The notes beneath the pieces are model-generated. The model saw nothing but the letters and a program-made list of their open reading frames with translations, made no database searches and was not told where the DNA came from. From Chlamydiota bacterium (GTDB lineage: Bacteria > Chlamydiota > Chlamydiia > Chlamydiales > 2-12-FULL-49-11): a DNA stretch of 62,645 nucleotides. The stretch is from positions 1 to 62,645 of the forward strand of contig CANJWO010000003.1 of assembly GCA_947478685.1 (NCBI GenBank). The letters are read 5' to 3'. Positions 1-62,645 of this stretch are shown piece after piece. Numbering within the stretch: the stretch's first letter is position 1; each line of letters opens with the position of its first letter. A program made the translations under genes and the position numbers.

Positions 1-147
1 AAGTTTACACAGTATGTGCCCTTGGGTTTCATTAGGCATTAGCCGGCGCTGAAGCAGGCCGTGTGTTTTCACACGAGCGATGCAAGCGAATGGAACCCAA
101 GGGATACAGACGCAGTAAAATTATCAATGCAAATTTAATTCGCTATA
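1..147 (+). mobile_element. MITE-like element family A, copy 1 (left 25 nt cut off by the window start)
   Basis: Bases 1-147 match 45446-45592 with one mismatch and 62524-62645 with one mismatch. Ends in the right terminal inverted repeat TATCAATGCAAATTTAATTCGCTATA (122-147). Confidence 0.8.
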
Positions 148-461
148 AATCCCATCTTGCCCGGCGAGCCGTGCAAAGCACTGTCCCACGATCCCCCACT
201 GGGAATCATGGAACCATCCCGCTGACCAACGTCCACCGGACGTTGGATCCAAGACGCGGGCCCCTCCTGCCGGACTCACAATATGTGATTTCTCTTTGCG
301 ATAATCTATTATTGAAGTGGTCATCGAGCGCTTATAAGATAAAATTTTAACCAGTATAAGGTTTTTAATTGCGAAGTTTTAAAGCTCTTATTATGCAGTT
401 TTATATATTAAGATATGGTAAAGTTATTGTCGAAAAATAATAATATACGAGGAGTTGTCAA

Positions 462-1262
462 ATGAATTCTTTAGAAAAAATGAATGGTACAGTCTATCAG
501 AAGGGTATTGAGTGGAAAACAGATAACAATGATGGATCTGTCTATATAAGCAATTGCAGTTTCGCAGATAGAGTAAAGGAAAATTTAGCTACACGGAAGT
601 GGCAAATTTTGGCTGGAGTGGCAATTATTGGAGTTTGTGCTGCTGTACTAGCGATAGCTATCCCGCTATTTTCCGCAACTATAGTACCTGACGTCGCTGT
701 TTTGGGTACAATTTTTGCAATAGATATACTAATAGTCGCTATTCCTTTTGTTCTAGCGAGAATATTTTCATTGCCAACTTCTTTAGCTAAGGTGCGTGCG
801 CCTGCTATGCTTGTTGAAATTCTAGGGCGCAAGGCAGTTGTGCCAGATCGGATTCTACGTAGAAAATCGACAGGACAGGGATTTACAGGATATGCATTTA
901 ACCTAAAATATAGGGTAACTTTAGGCAGAGAGTTTCCTGCTTCGGAAACACTAAAAATGAGATCTGAAATTGATTTAGGATATGAAAGTTCTAGAAAAGA
1001 GCAAAGTCAAATAGGGACAGAAAAGCAGCTTGCCGATTTCGGCAGATATATAAGAATTTCCGAGAGAGCTTTTACAAGACATCTAACTCCAGATCGAATT
1101 CATCAAATTCTCGATGAAACTAAGCTCAATTTTGAATTTGTCCGTAGTCGGATCAAACGTCTTATTGCAGGAGAGACAATTGGAATCTTAAATCCAAAAG
1201 GTGAAGAGCAGCCTGTTACTCCAGATTCGAAGATTCAACCCGGCTGGATTTTAAAGCAGTAG
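462..1262 (+). CDS. Inc-like membrane protein (bilobed hydrophobic domain), candidate type III secreted inclusion-membrane protein
   Basis: 266-aa ORF. Two adjacent hydrophobic segments (WQILAGVAIIGVCAAVLAIAIPLF and VAVLGTIFAIDILIVAIPFVLARIF) are separated by a 7-aa loop about 45 aa from the N-terminus; the rest is hydrophilic. GGAG sits 8 nt upstream of the ATG. No enzyme motif seen. Confidence 0.5.
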   Translation: MNSLEKMNGTVYQKGIEWKTDNNDGSVYISNCSFADRVKENLATRKWQILAGVAIIGVCAAVLAIAIPLFSATIVPDVAVLGTIFAIDILIVAIPFVLARIFSLPTSLAKVRAPAMLVEILGRKAVVPDRILRRKSTGQGFTGYAFNLKYRVTLGREFPASETLKMRSEIDLGYESSRKEQSQIGTEKQLADFGRYIRISERAFTRHLTPDRIHQILDETKLNFEFVRSRIKRLIAGETIGILNPKGEEQPVTPDSKIQPGWILKQ

Positions 1263-1302
1263 ATCAAAAGTCTGACCCCATTGGTTTAGTAATCATATTG
1301 AA

Positions 1303-2520
1303 TTAGGCGGTGCGGTGGCGATGGAAGAAGTAGATGAAGCAGAGGAGGATGAAGATGGAGCCGGTGAGGAGGGGGGCGTAGATGTTGATGGCGGCGAGGG
1401 GGCCGGCGACGAGGGGGGCGATGATTTGACCGATTGACCACATGGATCCGCTGGCTCCCATGGCACGGCCTTGGAGAGCGTCGGGTGTTTCAATGGAGAG
1501 GATAGTTCCTAGGTTGACCCAAGAGAGGGCGCCACCTATGAGGGCGATGGGGATGATAAACCAGAAGGGCCAGAGGGTGTTTGGGTAGACGAAGAGGGCG
1601 ACGCCAACGGAAGAGAGGATTGTCCCTGTGAGAATTAGTTTGTGGAGGGGGAATTTTGCGATGAGTTCCTTGTTTAGATACATGGCAACAAAAAACCAGA
1701 TAAGAGCTTGGTAGGCAAAGATATCGCCGATGGTGCCTGCACTTAGGTGAAATTTTTGGACAAGATAAGTGGGTGAGAAGATAAGAAAAAAGCCCCAGCC
1801 GATTGAGAAGAGAAGGAGGGCTGTAAGAATAATTCTTAATTTTTTCTGATGAAAGACGATCCGAATATCTTTAAACGTTGAGAGGAGGCTGATATGGGCC
1901 CCTTTTCTTTTCCACGTCTCAACAAAAAAGAAATAGACCATAAAAAAATTGATAAGGGCTGCTACAGCTGCAAAGATGAATGCGCCCGACCCAAAGAGCC
2001 AGTTAGGATTGGCAAGTTTTCCGCCTATCCAAGGGCCTGCTACAAATCCAAGACCACCAACTCCAATAAGTAAGCCAAATGCTCTGCTACGATGCTTGGT
2101 ATCAGTGAGATCGGCTGTTGCAGATTGTGCCAATGCAAAATTTCCAGAGCAAAAACCTGTTACCATTCGGCCGATAAATAACCATAAGAGACTTTGAGAA
2201 TAAACGCTTAAGGCCATCAAGGCATAACCAAAGATAGAGAGTCCGATCGTTGCTAAAAAGACTTTATACCGTCCATAATGATCGGCCATTGCTCCTGCAG
2301 CTGGGGCTCCAAAAAATTGGGTCACTCCAAATACAGCAAAAAGGAATCCGAGCATTGTTGTCCGAGTCAGTTCAGATGCATCATGTCCAAAAAAGGCAAG
2401 ATTGGGATTGAGCAAAAGGGGGGCTAAAACGGGGAATACAATTGAATATCCTACAAGATCAAGACCATAAGTAAGTAATATGGTTAAAAATGTCCGGTAA
2501 TCTCTGTCCGATCTAAACAT
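1303..2520 (-). CDS. MFS transporter (drug:H+ antiporter / TetA-like)
   Basis: 405 aa with a multi-TM profile. MFS motif A GAMADHYGRYKV follows TM2. Confidence 0.85.
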   Translation of the reverse strand: MFRSDRDYRTFLTILLTYGLDLVGYSIVFPVLAPLLLNPNLAFFGHDASELTRTTMLGFLFAVFGVTQFFGAPAAGAMADHYGRYKVFLATIGLSIFGYALMALSVYSQSLLWLFIGRMVTGFCSGNFALAQSATADLTDTKHRSRAFGLLIGVGGLGFVAGPWIGGKLANPNWLFGSGAFIFAAVAALINFFMVYFFFVETWKRKGAHISLLSTFKDIRIVFHQKKLRIILTALLLFSIGWGFFLIFSPTYLVQKFHLSAGTIGDIFAYQALIWFFVAMYLNKELIAKFPLHKLILTGTILSSVGVALFVYPNTLWPFWFIIPIALIGGALSWVNLGTILSIETPDALQGRAMGASGSMWSIGQIIAPLVAGPLAAINIYAPLLTGSIFILLCFIYFFHRHRTA

Positions 2521-2614
2521 ATAAATACTATTAATAAGAGATTTCTATTTATAACAAGAGATTTATCTATAGGTAACTGATGACGATGTAACATATTCGT
2601 AATAAGAGTTTTTC

Positions 2615-2695
2615 ACCACAGAGATCACAGAGGACACAGAGAAAAAAAAGTTTTTTTGCGCGTAGCGCCTCCGTGTTCTCTGTGATCTCTGTGGT
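2615..2695. repeat. Palindromic repeat family B, copy 1
   Basis: 27-nt arms ACCACAGAGATCACAGAGGACACAGAG (2615-2641) and CTCCGTGTTCTCTGTGATCTCTGTGGT (2669-2695) are reverse complements at 25/27, around a 27-nt spacer containing GCGCGTAGCGC. A related copy in the opposite orientation lies at 45604-45704. Confidence 0.8.
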
Positions 2696-2725
2696 AAAAA
2701 ATTTTCTATATTGTGGGATACGAGT

Positions 2726-2760
2726 GACAAAATGCACTGCTAGTTGGAGCTAGCAGTGCA
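2726..2760 (-). terminator. Intrinsic terminator downstream of the CPBP protease gene
   Basis: Perfect 11-bp stem TGCACTGCTAG / CTAGCAGTGCA (2733-2743 / 2750-2760) with a 6-nt loop, followed on the minus strand by TTTTG. Lies 14 nt after the stop at 2774. Confidence 0.7.
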
Positions 2761-2773
2761 ATGTTTCCTAGGC

Positions 2774-3748
2774 TTAGAATTCGAATGAGTATGCGAATTG
2801 CGGCTTCCCTACAACAGCAGTAGGGGCTGCAAGCGTGCCTGCCAAAAAGAGGGTGAAATCGTACCAAGCGTGAAGAGCTACGCTCGATTTTAGGGAACGA
2901 TTTTTATGGGTAAGCCATCCCATATAGCCGCCAAGTGAAGTGATAAGCGGGAGACTAAATGAGTAATAACGCCAGCGATCTTTTTCATCTAAGCCTTGAG
3001 CGTTTGGAATATGGACGGCACCAAATACTAATGAAGAGAGGACAATTGCTCCTGTTGGATTTAGACGTTCTGCAAGATACGATTGAAGGTAGCCCCTAAA
3101 AAAAGACTCCTCTCCAACACCAACTGAAAATGCAGCGAGAGGAAATATGTTTGATGATACGCTACAAGAGTTAATATGCATGTCTGTGAAAGCAAAATAG
3201 GAAACAGCGGTTCCGAGTGTGAGTGCGCCGAGTAATCCGCCCCAAACTTCAGGCTTTTTCATCACACTCCATCGAAACGGGGCTGTTGTTAAATCAGATA
3301 GACTATCCATCGGCATTCTATAAGTATAGCCACTTTGTCCATTATTAATTCGGACATCTCTGTAGGCTGCAAAAATACCATAAGACCACATATTTGAAGC
3401 TGTTATGATGCTTACGGCGTCGTGAGTAAAAGCGTTTGTTCCGATTAAAGCACTGGTTGAACCAAATAGGCTTGCCGCTGTCTTTAAGTCGCCTAGATAA
3501 ACATGGCCAAGTCCAGGTACTAAAAATGACAATCCGACAGTTAAGAAGGAGCTTCTCTGGTGTTTTGGCAGTACAGGAATTGTCCCAGTCAATTGCGTTT
3601 CGGGAAGAGTCGGATTTGTAAATGTAGGCTGTTCAAGCATGGTAACTTGTTCTACTACAGGCTCGTCAGAGGTGTCGGCAAATACTAAAGATGATGCAGA
3701 AAGAATAGCGATTAAAAATTTCATGAAGACTCCGATTGTATTTTGCAA
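2774..3748 (-). CDS. CPBP (CAAX protease/bacteriocin-processing, Abi) family intramembrane protease with N-terminal extension
   Basis: Carries the family motifs EESFFRGYL and FGAVH plus HAWYD in a multi-TM C-terminal half. The likely true start is the ATG at 3724 (MKFLIAILSASSLVFA signal peptide). Confidence 0.75.
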   Translation of the reverse strand: MQNTIGVFMKFLIAILSASSLVFADTSDEPVVEQVTMLEQPTFTNPTLPETQLTGTIPVLPKHQRSSFLTVGLSFLVPGLGHVYLGDLKTAASLFGSTSALIGTNAFTHDAVSIITASNMWSYGIFAAYRDVRINNGQSGYTYRMPMDSLSDLTTAPFRWSVMKKPEVWGGLLGALTLGTAVSYFAFTDMHINSCSVSSNIFPLAAFSVGVGEESFFRGYLQSYLAERLNPTGAIVLSSLVFGAVHIPNAQGLDEKDRWRYYSFSLPLITSLGGYMGWLTHKNRSLKSSVALHAWYDFTLFLAGTLAAPTAVVGKPQFAYSFEF

Positions 3749-44622: not shown

Positions 44623-45419
44623 TAGCCCTTTTTTTAGGAATGGCCGTTCAAGTTTGTGCACTCGAGGAACAACCTTGGTTTCATCCACCGTTTAATTTTC
44701 ATGGAAAGGGGGCAGTGGATGGGAGCTTCTTTACCAATGTAAATAATGGATATAATCCCATTGATTATCATTCTACAAATATTCAGGTGATAGCAGGTCT
44801 CTTAGCTCCTGTCTCGCCTCGCTGGGATGCAGAGATTGAAATTGAGCTCGAAAGCACATCTAAATATAATTTTGGATTCGAAAGCGCGGCTTTCCAAATA
44901 AGAAGGCTTTTTTTGAACGATATTGTAGAAGATTTTGTCAGCTTTGATATCGGCGTTAACGTTCGAGCTGTTCCGGCGCAACGTCTTCACGATGTCGCCG
45001 TTCCCTACCACGATCTTTGGAATTTTGAACTCACAAGCGCCTTAGGTAAGGAGTTTACACAGGAAAATGAATGGCTCTGGAGGACATTTGTCTCTGCAGC
45101 TCTTGGTCAAGCTAACCGCGGCTATCCATGGGTGAAAGCAAATTTTGATATTCGTGCAAAAGCCTTTAAAGATTATATGTTCACAGCCTTTCTAAGAAGT
45201 TATTTTGGTTTGGGTAATCGTACCCTTATCAATGTAAGAGATTTTGATGGCTATGCGTTCTACCGCCACCAAAGCATCGATGTAGGCGCCACATTTACCA
45301 TCTTCTTTAATGCAAGAGGATCACTCACCCTCAGTTATCTGCACCGCTTTCTAGCCAGATCATTCCCCGAAGACTACAACAGCTTCAGACTCACGTACGA
45401 CCTCCCTTTCTCTTTCTAA
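44595..45419 (+). CDS. Putative outer-membrane beta-barrel protein
   Basis: Signal peptide MAYTTKSKIVALFLGMAVQVCA. Alternating beta-strand pattern with a C-terminal ...LPFSF. Start taken at 44595. Confidence 0.55.
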   Translation: MAYTTKSKIVALFLGMAVQVCALEEQPWFHPPFNFHGKGAVDGSFFTNVNNGYNPIDYHSTNIQVIAGLLAPVSPRWDAEIEIELESTSKYNFGFESAAFQIRRLFLNDIVEDFVSFDIGVNVRAVPAQRLHDVAVPYHDLWNFELTSALGKEFTQENEWLWRTFVSAALGQANRGYPWVKANFDIRAKAFKDYMFTAFLRSYFGLGNRTLINVRDFDGYAFYRHQSIDVGATFTIFFNARGSLTLSYLHRFLARSFPEDYNSFRLTYDLPFSF

Positions 45420-45420
45420 A

Positions 45421-45592
45421 TATAGTGAATTAAATTTACATTGATAAGTTTACACAGTATGTGCCCTTGGGTTTCATTAGGCATTAGCCGGCGCTAAAGC
45501 AGGCCGTGTGTTTTCACACGAGCGATGCAAGCGAATGGAACCCAAGGGATACAGACGCAGTAAAATTATCAATGCAAATTTAATTCGCTATA
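45421..45592 (+). mobile_element. MITE-like element family A, copy 2 (complete, 172 bp)
   Basis: 26-bp terminal inverted repeats TATAGTGAATTAAATTTACATTGATA (45421-45446) and TATCAATGCAAATTTAATTCGCTATA (45567-45592), complementary at 24/26. Internal 15-bp stem CCCTTGGGTTTCATT (45464-45478) / AATGGAACCCAAGGG (45534-45548). No coding capacity. Confidence 0.85.
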
Positions 45593-45603
45593 TAAATAAG
45601 AAT

Positions 45604-45704
45604 TTTTACCACAGAGAACACAGAGGCGCTACGCGCAAAGAATTTGTTGTTTTTTCTCCGTGTCCTCTGTGCTCTCTAGAGAGCGCAGCGAACGGGTGGT
45701 TAAA
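45604..45704. repeat. Palindromic repeat family B, copy 2 (inverted relative to copy 1, more degenerate)
   Basis: ACCACAGAGAACACAGAGGCGCTACGCGCAAA ... TCTCCGTGTCCTCTGTGCTCTCT matches the reverse complement of 2615-2695. It lies 11 nt after MITE copy 2. Confidence 0.7.
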
Positions 45705-45729
45705 ATATTTTTCTTATTTTTTATTGGAG

Positions 45730-46110
45730 CTATTGCCCTTTTAGGGCGATGACTGTGGCAGTTGCATAGTGCTTGCAGTGAGATAGGGAGATGTGAAAGG
45801 TTGGATTACCAAAATGGGCAGAGGCTTTTGGACTTAGTTTGACTGTAGGTTTCCCTAAAGGGTCGTTTAGGATTTCGATATCGAGGAAGGCTATATCCTT
45901 TCCAAAGCCAACTCCTAGGGCTTTTACAATAGCCTCTTTGGCGCAAAATCTAACGGTGTAGCGGCTTGAGGGGTCTGAGTAGCGAAGGCAGTACTCTTGC
46001 TCATTTTTTGTGAAGAGTTTGTCGAGAAACTTTTGGCCGTGCTCTTTTAGAACATTCTTGAAACGTTCAATTTCAAGAATGTCAGTGCCAATTCCTGATA
46101 TATTAGTCAT
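45730..46110 (-). CDS. acpS: Holo-ACP synthase
   Basis: GIGTDILEIERF motif. Start taken at 46110 (MTNISGIG...). Confidence 0.88.
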   Translation of the reverse strand: MTNISGIGTDILEIERFKNVLKEHGQKFLDKLFTKNEQEYCLRYSDPSSRYTVRFCAKEAIVKALGVGFGKDIAFLDIEILNDPLGKPTVKLSPKASAHFGNPTFHISLSHCKHYATATVIALKGQ

Positions 46111-61676: not shown

Positions 61677-62522
61677 ATGTCTGTTAGTGGAACTGGTAGT
61701 TTTAGTTTTTGTGATCATTTTAAGTATTCAGTAAGGTCTTCTTTTCAGGTTCCTTGTAAGGTAGCTAAAGAAAAAGGGTGTTCTGATGCAGCTAAGAAGG
61801 TGGCTATAGCAGTATCTACTGTTTTTTTAGTTGGGTTTCTTTGGCATGCTGGATCAGCATCTTATAATAAGTATAAATTCCGAGAAGAAGGAAGATTGTT
61901 TGTCCACGATAATGATGCATATATAAGAACTCACAGAATAGATCTTGAGCGGAACCCTAATATATTGGGTGGGTGGATTGGATGCTATGGGATCAAACAT
62001 GCAGGCGATCGATTAGTTCTCTCTACCGTGGTTAAATCTACGCCATCAGCTCAAACATTAACAGTTGCTCTTATGTATGAAGATAATGGGTGTATCAGGA
62101 TAGCAAATCAAAAATATGGGGTTGCTTTTGGAGATTCTATATGCAGTGAATTGTATGATGTGGTTTTATTTAGAGATCCTGTGCAAGTAGCTGACTATAT
62201 AGCTACTAAACCACTTGTCTGGGAGTGTGAGCCCTTTAAATTCAGGGGCAGAGTCCCATCACCTGCATTAAATATGGGAAAATTAAATGATTTGTTCATT
62301 ACTTTTCCAGTATCTCCTAGGTGCCCTGCTGGTAGAATTGCAAGAAAAGTTGACGATAATCGGGGCGATCAAACTGTTGAAATTCTTACTATAGATCAAT
62401 TAAAGGGGGAATATCGAGTTAAGCCTTCAGTTGTTATGAAAGCCTTTATAGATCTTTGGGATCAAAAATTAGTTCAGGTTGCAACTCTTCACAAAGCTTA
62501 TAGTGAATTAAATTTACATTGA
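61677..62522 (+). CDS. Hypothetical single-pass membrane protein whose last 7 codons and stop come from the MITE
   Basis: 281-aa ORF with a TM segment VAIAVSTVFLVGFLW. The C-terminal YSELNLH-stop is encoded by the MITE left repeat (62499-62522). Confidence 0.5.
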   Translation: MSVSGTGSFSFCDHFKYSVRSSFQVPCKVAKEKGCSDAAKKVAIAVSTVFLVGFLWHAGSASYNKYKFREEGRLFVHDNDAYIRTHRIDLERNPNILGGWIGCYGIKHAGDRLVLSTVVKSTPSAQTLTVALMYEDNGCIRIANQKYGVAFGDSICSELYDVVLFRDPVQVADYIATKPLVWECEPFKFRGRVPSPALNMGKLNDLFITFPVSPRCPAGRIARKVDDNRGDQTVEILTIDQLKGEYRVKPSVVMKAFIDLWDQKLVQVATLHKAYSELNLH

Positions 62523-62645
62523 TAAGTTTACACAGTATGTGCCCTTGGGTTTCATTAAGCATTAGCCGGCGCTGAAGCAGGCCGTGTGTTTTCACACGAG
62601 CGATGCAAGCGAATGGAACCCAAGGGATACAGACGCAGTAAAATT
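62499..62645 (+). mobile_element. MITE-like element family A, copy 3 (right 25 nt cut off by the window end)
   Basis: Starts with the left repeat TATAGTGAATTAAATTTACATTGATA. Matches 45421-45567 with two mismatches. Confidence 0.8.

Follow-up and report, generated by a model that had tools for sequence, protein, structure and literature searches.

A 172-bp non-coding repeat with Correia-type tips, probably a recently multiplied MITE family, in an uncultured freshwater chlamydia

What kind of sequence stands three times, nearly unchanged, in a single chlamydial contig and also occupies both of the contig's ends? The stretch analysed here, hereafter the window, is a contig of 62,645 nt from a Chlamydiota bacterium, an origin with which the genes next to the repeat are consistent. 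It contains one complete copy of a 172-nt repeat (copy 2, positions 45421 to 45592, plus strand, counting the TA at each end; TATAGTG...CGCTATA), together with two copies that are cut by the contig ends, copy 1 at positions 1 to 147 (plus strand; element positions 26-172) and copy 3 at positions 62499 to 62645 (plus strand; element positions 1-147). A first, sequence-only reading had proposed a MITE-like element in three copies of about 99% identity, all in the same orientation and with one or two unique bases in each end copy, and the comparison of the copies agrees with this in every part. Copy 1 differs from the complete copy at a single site, element position 76 (window position 45496), where copy 2 has a private A and the family consensus has G, and copy 3 differs at two sites, having in addition a base of its own at element position 60.

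The anatomy of the complete copy is that of a small, inverted-repeat-bounded element. The left terminal inverted repeat (45421 to 45447, plus strand; TATAGTGAATTAAATTTACATTGATAA) opens with 18 nt that are identical to a variant of the Correia repeat, and the right terminal inverted repeat (45566 to 45592, minus strand) has the reverse complement TATAGCGAATTAAATTTGCATTGATAA. As had been claimed from the letters, the two are complementary at 24 of 26 positions, the exceptions being positions 6 and 18; extension gives 31 of 33. The terminal inverted repeats (TIRs) measure about 27 bp. A 25-nt pattern of the TIR occurs in the window only at the four element ends, with 0 expected in shuffles. Between arms of 26% G+C lies a G+C-rich core (45464 to 45548, plus strand; 55% G+C), which is closed by a 15-bp stem (45464-45478 with 45534-45548; 14 Watson-Crick pairs and one G-U pair) and which contains the hairpin CGTGTG-TTTT-CACACG at 45505-45520, one pair longer than first described. 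Folded end to end, the whole element reaches -83.9 kcal/mol when treated as RNA (z -13.2); treated as DNA, it reaches -51.8 kcal/mol (z -12.3). It is a near-palindrome with about 71% identity to its own reverse complement. All six reading frames contain stops, the longest open stretch being 37 codons, and in every frame a stop is reached within 2-8 codons of either element end. The element is thus well below the size of about 500 bp that bounds MITEs in general, and, as the sequence-only reading had it, without coding capacity.

The window begins and ends 147 nt into a copy, and the suspicion that this marks an assembly break is supported from outside the window. Public assemblies made independently from this organism break off inside these same three copies, and the overhang into the repeat rises with the word size of the assembler, from 27-29 nt in Logan contigs (k=31) and 52-54 nt in ENA scaffolds to 139 nt in a k141 contig and 147 nt in this window; the window ends are therefore read as repeat-induced breaks. 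Specifically, a 99.6-kb ENA scaffold (L013/L054) passes through copy 1, which is intact there (L013:3515-3686), and stops within copy 2. A walk of 10 kb to the left of copy 1 met no further copy. A circular form of the window was considered and rejected; where its ends overlap, over 121 nt, there is one mismatch, and scaffolds L013 and L012 lead into different DNA. In run X12, a 252-nt contig with a depth of 3.1 covers positions 45356-45607, that is, the whole element and both of its flanks, with no mismatch. The rest of the region is unassembled in that run, and the contig probably stems from one read pair whose mates overlap, the coverage being very low. A diverged member of the family, with 9 differences in 72 nt, occurs in this run as well.

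The number of copies was derived from Logan contigs of lake metagenomes aligned to window positions 45000-46000. In runs X1, X2, X3, and X5, the single-copy flanks have depths of 11.5, 5.6, 21, and 4.9, and an exact 127-nt core unitig has depths of 359, 227, 719, and 134, respectively, giving core-to-flank ratios of 27-41 over the four runs. In these four runs, that one exact unitig takes up at least 97% of the depth of the core, and the window's A at 45496 accounts for one genome-equivalent of depth only. Contigs running over the element ends number 49 in X1 and 50 in X3, which corresponds to about 25 two-sided copies. Taken together, these values indicate about 25-40 near-identical copies per genome. 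The copies share sharp boundaries. At least 11 left flanks and at least 10 right flanks, drawn from the window, L013, L019, L020, and single-contig loose ends, differ from one another starting directly outside TATAGTG...CGCTATA. The further copies on which a reading as a mobile element depends are consequently present, about 30 of them near-identical and dispersed over more than 20 distinct and unrelated flanking contexts.

The family is nevertheless structured. One subfamily, of about 6-8 copies, has an extra A after 45573, and short forms exist, such as the 42-bp TATAGTGAATTAAATTTACATTGATAAGTTTAATTCACTATA, which is comparable to solo Correia repeats. The 42-bp form was seen within long single-copy contigs, and loose ends occur at 45452 (X1, X2, X3, X5, and X11). 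Other contigs of run X3 share just the 18-nt tip and then differ (at 45438 and 45575); such contigs may belong to further families or represent the termini of a longer partner element.

[quoted passage not shown] Likewise, the 281-aa ORF at copy 3 extends into the repeat and ends ...KAYSELNLH, and the ortholog in L057 keeps its own C-terminus (...WDQKSRLGRIV) with no element after it. The element is absent from the relatives' locus in every case fetched, L005, L006, L022, L023, and L057 included. The spacers and C-termini of these five are too diverged to align, and they offer no empty site at the level of single bases. In the lake populations, all eight runs examined at copy 2, and all four examined at each end copy, carry the element, and among these runs there is neither a joint that skips it nor a loose end of an empty site.

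TA stands at both ends of every intact copy, with no longer duplication. Where both flanks of a copy are available (four copies; TTTGA and AATCC, CTAAA and TAAAT, GTCAT and AAGAA, TGCGT and TGGCA), nothing beyond the terminal TA is duplicated. Whether that TA belongs to the repeat or is a duplicated target was indistinguishable in the sequence-only reading and is still so, since TA is found at all intact ends and an alignable empty site is lacking among the runs and relatives examined; a TA target duplication is therefore proposed by analogy.

Diverged members of the family occur elsewhere. A copy in L020 is 96.5% identical and has other flanks, and a decayed copy of 88% identity lies in L021, a chlamydial metagenome-assembled genome in GTDB, with AA rather than TA at one end. 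Conservation among these diverged members is highest in the terminal repeats and the right arm. The 15-bp stem of L020 shows one compensatory G:C to T:A change and one uncompensated change, and L021 has many uncompensated ones; a covariation check thus comes to one compensatory change and several disruptive changes among few diverged copies. An exact 22-mer of the core matched nothing in the GTDB representative genomes or the JGI metagenomes, and a degenerate 25-mer of the TIR matched the one decayed copy (L021) in the GTDB representatives and nothing in the JGI metagenomes. Proteins that start inside the element form two clusters only, and these led to the full copies in L019 and L020. Matches in a plasmid collection were discarded as chance similarities of A+T-rich sequence, including one in Arsenophonus that lacks the TATAGTG tip.

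The reading that best fits these observations, at a probability of roughly 0.8, is that of a MITE, a 172-bp non-coding element moved in trans and recently multiplied to about 25-40 copies, with Correia-type tips and yet a family of its own, given that its interior is unrelated to that of Correia elements. Copies in more than 20 contexts, the lack of coding capacity, and the absence from orthologous sites all support the MITE identity that was first suspected. The resemblance to Correia elements, the number of copies, and the diverged copies in other chlamydial assemblies go beyond that first reading. Under this reading, a transposase encoded elsewhere would bind the terminal repeats of about 27 bp, excise the element, and insert it at a TA dinucleotide, and the element proper would measure 170 bp if one TA is target-derived. 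The recent multiplication would have taken place in the uncultured freshwater chlamydia, with older, diverged copies left in other chlamydial assemblies. The element may still be active today, and it may influence the expression of its neighbours.

Uniformity of this kind had been ascribed to either recent mobilisation or gene conversion, and it is the former that is favoured, because four runs agree in one exact, shared core and the flanks around it are unrelated throughout. Were gene conversion at work instead, old copies would be kept identical by concerted evolution, and the element would be a fossil without an active transposase. It is true that no transposase was found in the sequences searched, that copy 2 shows no insertion polymorphism among eight lake metagenomes, and that, according to the literature, over 100 Correia copies are likewise kept in Neisseria, for which no transposase is known. 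However, some 30 dispersed copies with an exact 127-nt core have flanks that are unrelated from the first outside base, a relative with 95% amino-acid identity has no copy between the same genes, and subfamilies, both the one with the extra A and the short forms, would be unexpected under strong homogenisation; the gene-conversion account is accordingly judged unlikely.

If the MITE was mobilised recently, the nature of its mover becomes the next point. The sequence-only reading had seen TA followed by (T/C)AGTG in the tips, and an IS630/Tc1-like assignment on this basis remains a best guess by analogy, to which the close match between the tips and those of Correia elements lends indirect support. 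Tc1 and Tc3 have the tip TA/CAGTG, which the tip of the present element, TA/TAGTG, resembles. The transposase is probably of the IS630/Tc1 type. An element combining these ends with a transposase gene was searched for with exact tip patterns and was found neither in the window nor in about 476 kb of fetched loci, the GTDB representatives, the JGI metagenomes, and IMG/VR, and the tip scan of IMG/VR gave no inverted tip pair of IS size.

A mover other than a DDE transposase, such as a HUH/RAYT-type enzyme as for REP/REPIN sequences or a small nuclease acting on a cruciform or hairpin, would suit the near-palindromic build of the element, its strong fold as single-stranded DNA, and the one compensatory stem change in L020. 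The combination of long TIRs with conserved tips and a TA at either end is nonetheless the signature of DDE/IS630 elements, the GTAG or CGTC head of REPs is absent, and conservation is highest in the terminal repeats and in the right arm rather than in the stems, with an uncompensated stem change in L020 and many in L021. A mover of this other kind is therefore considered very unlikely, and a DDE transposase acting in trans is retained as the preferred agent.

The location relative to genes was determined for five copies. Copy 1 starts 12 nt past the stop of a 222-aa gene (as seen in L013), copy 2 starts 2 nt past the stop of a 282-aa gene, and the 281-aa ORF at 61677 to 62522 takes its last seven codons and its stop (YSELNLH) from the left repeat of copy 3, in accordance with the early remark that all three sit at or just after gene 3' ends. 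The L020 copy lies 46 nt past an open frame and ahead of a convergent gene, and the L021 copy lies 6 nt past the stop of a gene reading into its left end. All five placed copies therefore follow a stop by 0-46 nt, with the left end facing the gene that ends there. This uniform orientation relative to the adjoining gene is suggestive (n = 5), and although the number is small, it is not predicted for a purely neutral MITE. Copies may persist mainly just past stop codons or between convergent genes, where an insertion would be least harmful.

Insertion has several by-products: a copy brings in stop codons for all frames, would give the 3' untranslated RNA a hairpin of great stability, and may create outward-facing promoter-like sites at its junctions. 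Each arm contains TTATCA, followed after 17 nt by a hexamer at the junction; in the right arm TTATCA occupies 45566-45571, and the junction hexamer is TATATA here and TATAAT where the flank begins with AT. A promoter scan flagged the left junction and found two weak promoter-like sites in total, and by analogy with Correia elements the right-arm junction may form an outward promoter-like site. The repeat also gives rise to open reading frames in public annotations. A minus-strand 66-aa ORF at window positions 124-324 owes its last seven codons and stop (YSELNLH) to the right repeat of copy 1, and the called "proteins" P0022 and P0023 begin at GTG inside other element copies; all three are annotation artefacts made by the repeat.

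That the element was a functional RNA or regulatory module first (an RNase III site, stabiliser, terminator, or small-RNA gene), spread and kept by selection, is most improbable. In its favour, five of five placed copies share one orientation behind a stop codon, the stability of the hairpin is very high, and Correia hairpins are RNase III substrates. Against it, Rfam returned noise only (best MIR841, with 25.7 bits where the gathering score is 200), which answers the earlier caveat that the repeat might belong to a known structured RNA family, a scan for intrinsic terminators found none, none of the RNA runs searched contains the sequence, the copies are too alike for covariation and the diverged ones decay in their stems, and any function would be secondary to mobility.

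Other repeats share the surroundings of the element. A second family, a G+C-containing palindrome of CACAGAG/CTCTGTG units, occurs at window positions 45606-45690 and 2609-2711 and at L019:300-375. It lies 14-25 nt downstream of the MITE at two unrelated loci (window and L019), in opposite orientations, and is present in multiple copies in the metagenomes, inside many long contigs; it is missing from the same spacer in the relative L005. One contig of run X3 skips 45593-45650. A different, perfectly palindromic repeat (CCCCCTATGTCAGCGTAGTTGTCGCA...TGCGACAACTACGCTGACATAGGGGG) is found at L022:838-930, just past the ortholog of the 222-aa gene. Within this clade, several unrelated hairpin repeats have gathered at the 3' ends of genes.

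One copy of the MITE has itself become a target. In L012, a group II intron (992-3044; Rfam RF02001 and RF00029) with a 440-aa reverse transcriptase/maturase ORF interrupts a MITE copy just past the central hairpin, between ...CACACGAGCGATG and GTGTGCCCAG, a junction that corresponds to window positions 45527/45528. The same 5' intron junction is present in run X9. The 3' exon of L012 is not MITE sequence, so the multi-copy intron has probably led to a chimeric scaffold here. Structural variants also occur upstream of the Inc-like gene at 462 to 1262 (window 148-545; L018:1-128). Scaffold L018 departs from the window at position 336, and a contig of run X11 links the end of the 222-aa gene (...GCCTAATTCAC) straight to window position 545. 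In these two variants, the region with copy 1 and a C-rich tract has been replaced or deleted.

The element as such is ordinary, as MITEs are common. In the literature searched, there was no report of MITEs in Chlamydiota, and both a 2024 review and a survey of 183,000 genomes make no mention of the phylum. About 30 near-identical copies would imply that transposition was recently active in an obligate intracellular lineage. The repeat and the second palindromic family fragment every short-read assembly of this organism, and knowledge of the repeat permits scaffolding. Beyond this, the enzyme that mobilises Correia elements has been unknown since 1988, and a remote second host with a fresh burst of copies narrows the search. 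It is tempting, if rather doubtful, to suggest that the chlamydial family, the Correia elements of Neisseriaceae, and other TATAGTG-tipped MITEs are all substrates of one widespread transposase lineage; should that be true, then, with copies so nearly identical that they must have multiplied very recently, an intact partner element would be expected in the genome of this chlamydia or of a co-resident organism, and the chlamydia would offer a place to identify the Correia transposase.

Among known systems, several can be set beside the present element. MITEs derived from IS630, such as RUP of Streptococcus pneumoniae (with IS630-Spn1) and ERIC/MITEEc1, likewise have TA at their termini, which is what duplication of a TA target would lead one to expect, short TIRs, A+T-rich arms, and no coding capacity. 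For RUP, however, a parent IS with matching ends is known, whereas no such IS630-family element was found in the sequences searched here. REP/REPIN sequences are likewise dispersed, extragenic, hairpin-forming, and numerous. REPs, however, are palindromes of 20-40 bp that have a GTAG or CGTC head and lack long TIRs and TA ends (PMC3733652). In contrast to the short headed palindromes that go with RAYT, the chlamydial element has 27-bp TIRs, TATAGTG tips, and no such head. Rickettsia palindromic elements differ in another way; these are inserted in frame and translated within genes, whereas the present element has stops everywhere, and copy 3 truncates its ORF and is not read through.

The closest counterpart is the Correia element (CREE, NEMIS). 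Its termini are listed as tatagtggattaaatttaaatcaggacaa and variants, beginning tatagtggattaaattta... (PMC5039591), and the terminal sequence that it shares with the present element is TATAGTG(G/A)ATTAAATTTA. The left tip of the chlamydial element is identical to the Correia variant of L027/L049 at 18 of 18 and 21 of 22 positions, and to the classical meningococcal/gonococcal form at 17 of 18 and 19 of 22. Compared with the end definition tatagtggattaa(caaaaa/atttaaa)..., the first 18-22 nt match and divergence sets in from about position 22, with 20-23 of 28 positions identical. A scan of IMG/VR with the 18-nt tip recovered genuine Correia elements of 69-157 bp, in addition to chance or coding matches. 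Most of these Correia elements are in prophage loci bearing the Neisseria DNA uptake sequence, and one is in a locus with an uptake sequence that we take to be of the Kingella type. Since the element's tips, TATAGTGAATTAAATTTA, are those of Correia elements, mobilisation by the same, probably IS630/Tc1-mariner-like, transposase lineage appears most likely.

Behind the tips, the resemblance ends. Local alignment of the interior with Correia sequences is no better than that of shuffles (of 300 shuffles, 29-211 do equally well), the interior motifs of Correia elements are absent, and the only sequence shared with the region of their IHF site is the 9-mer GCTGAAGCA, for which the chance probability is about 0.1. 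With the interior at the level of shuffles, the shared tip could in principle be a convergence. The lengths differ as well (classes of 104-108 and 153-157 bp in Correia elements, 172 bp here), as do the hosts (Neisseria/Neisseriaceae against a freshwater member of the Chlamydiota) and the preferred sites, most gonococcal copies lying 5' of genes and the present copies at gene 3' ends. Core, length, and host thus set the element apart from Correia elements in the strict sense.

In their general design, the two are nonetheless alike. Both carry a TA at each end and inverted repeats of about 26 bp, belong to the size class of 100-200 bp, occur in tens to hundreds of copies, fold as a whole into a hairpin, and can form an outward -10 hexamer at a junction; for neither is a cognate transposase known. 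According to the Correia literature, these elements are regarded as IS630-derived, with the transposase unknown; promoters and an IHF site are among their features, and their hairpins are substrates of RNase III. Their insertion duplicates the target, filled and empty sites differing by 105 bp for a 107-bp repeat; this TA duplication is published for Correia elements, whereas in the chlamydial element it is proposed by analogy. Taken as a whole, the chlamydial element probably works like a Correia element, and it is read as a new, Correia-like family of MITEs that is separate from Correia itself.
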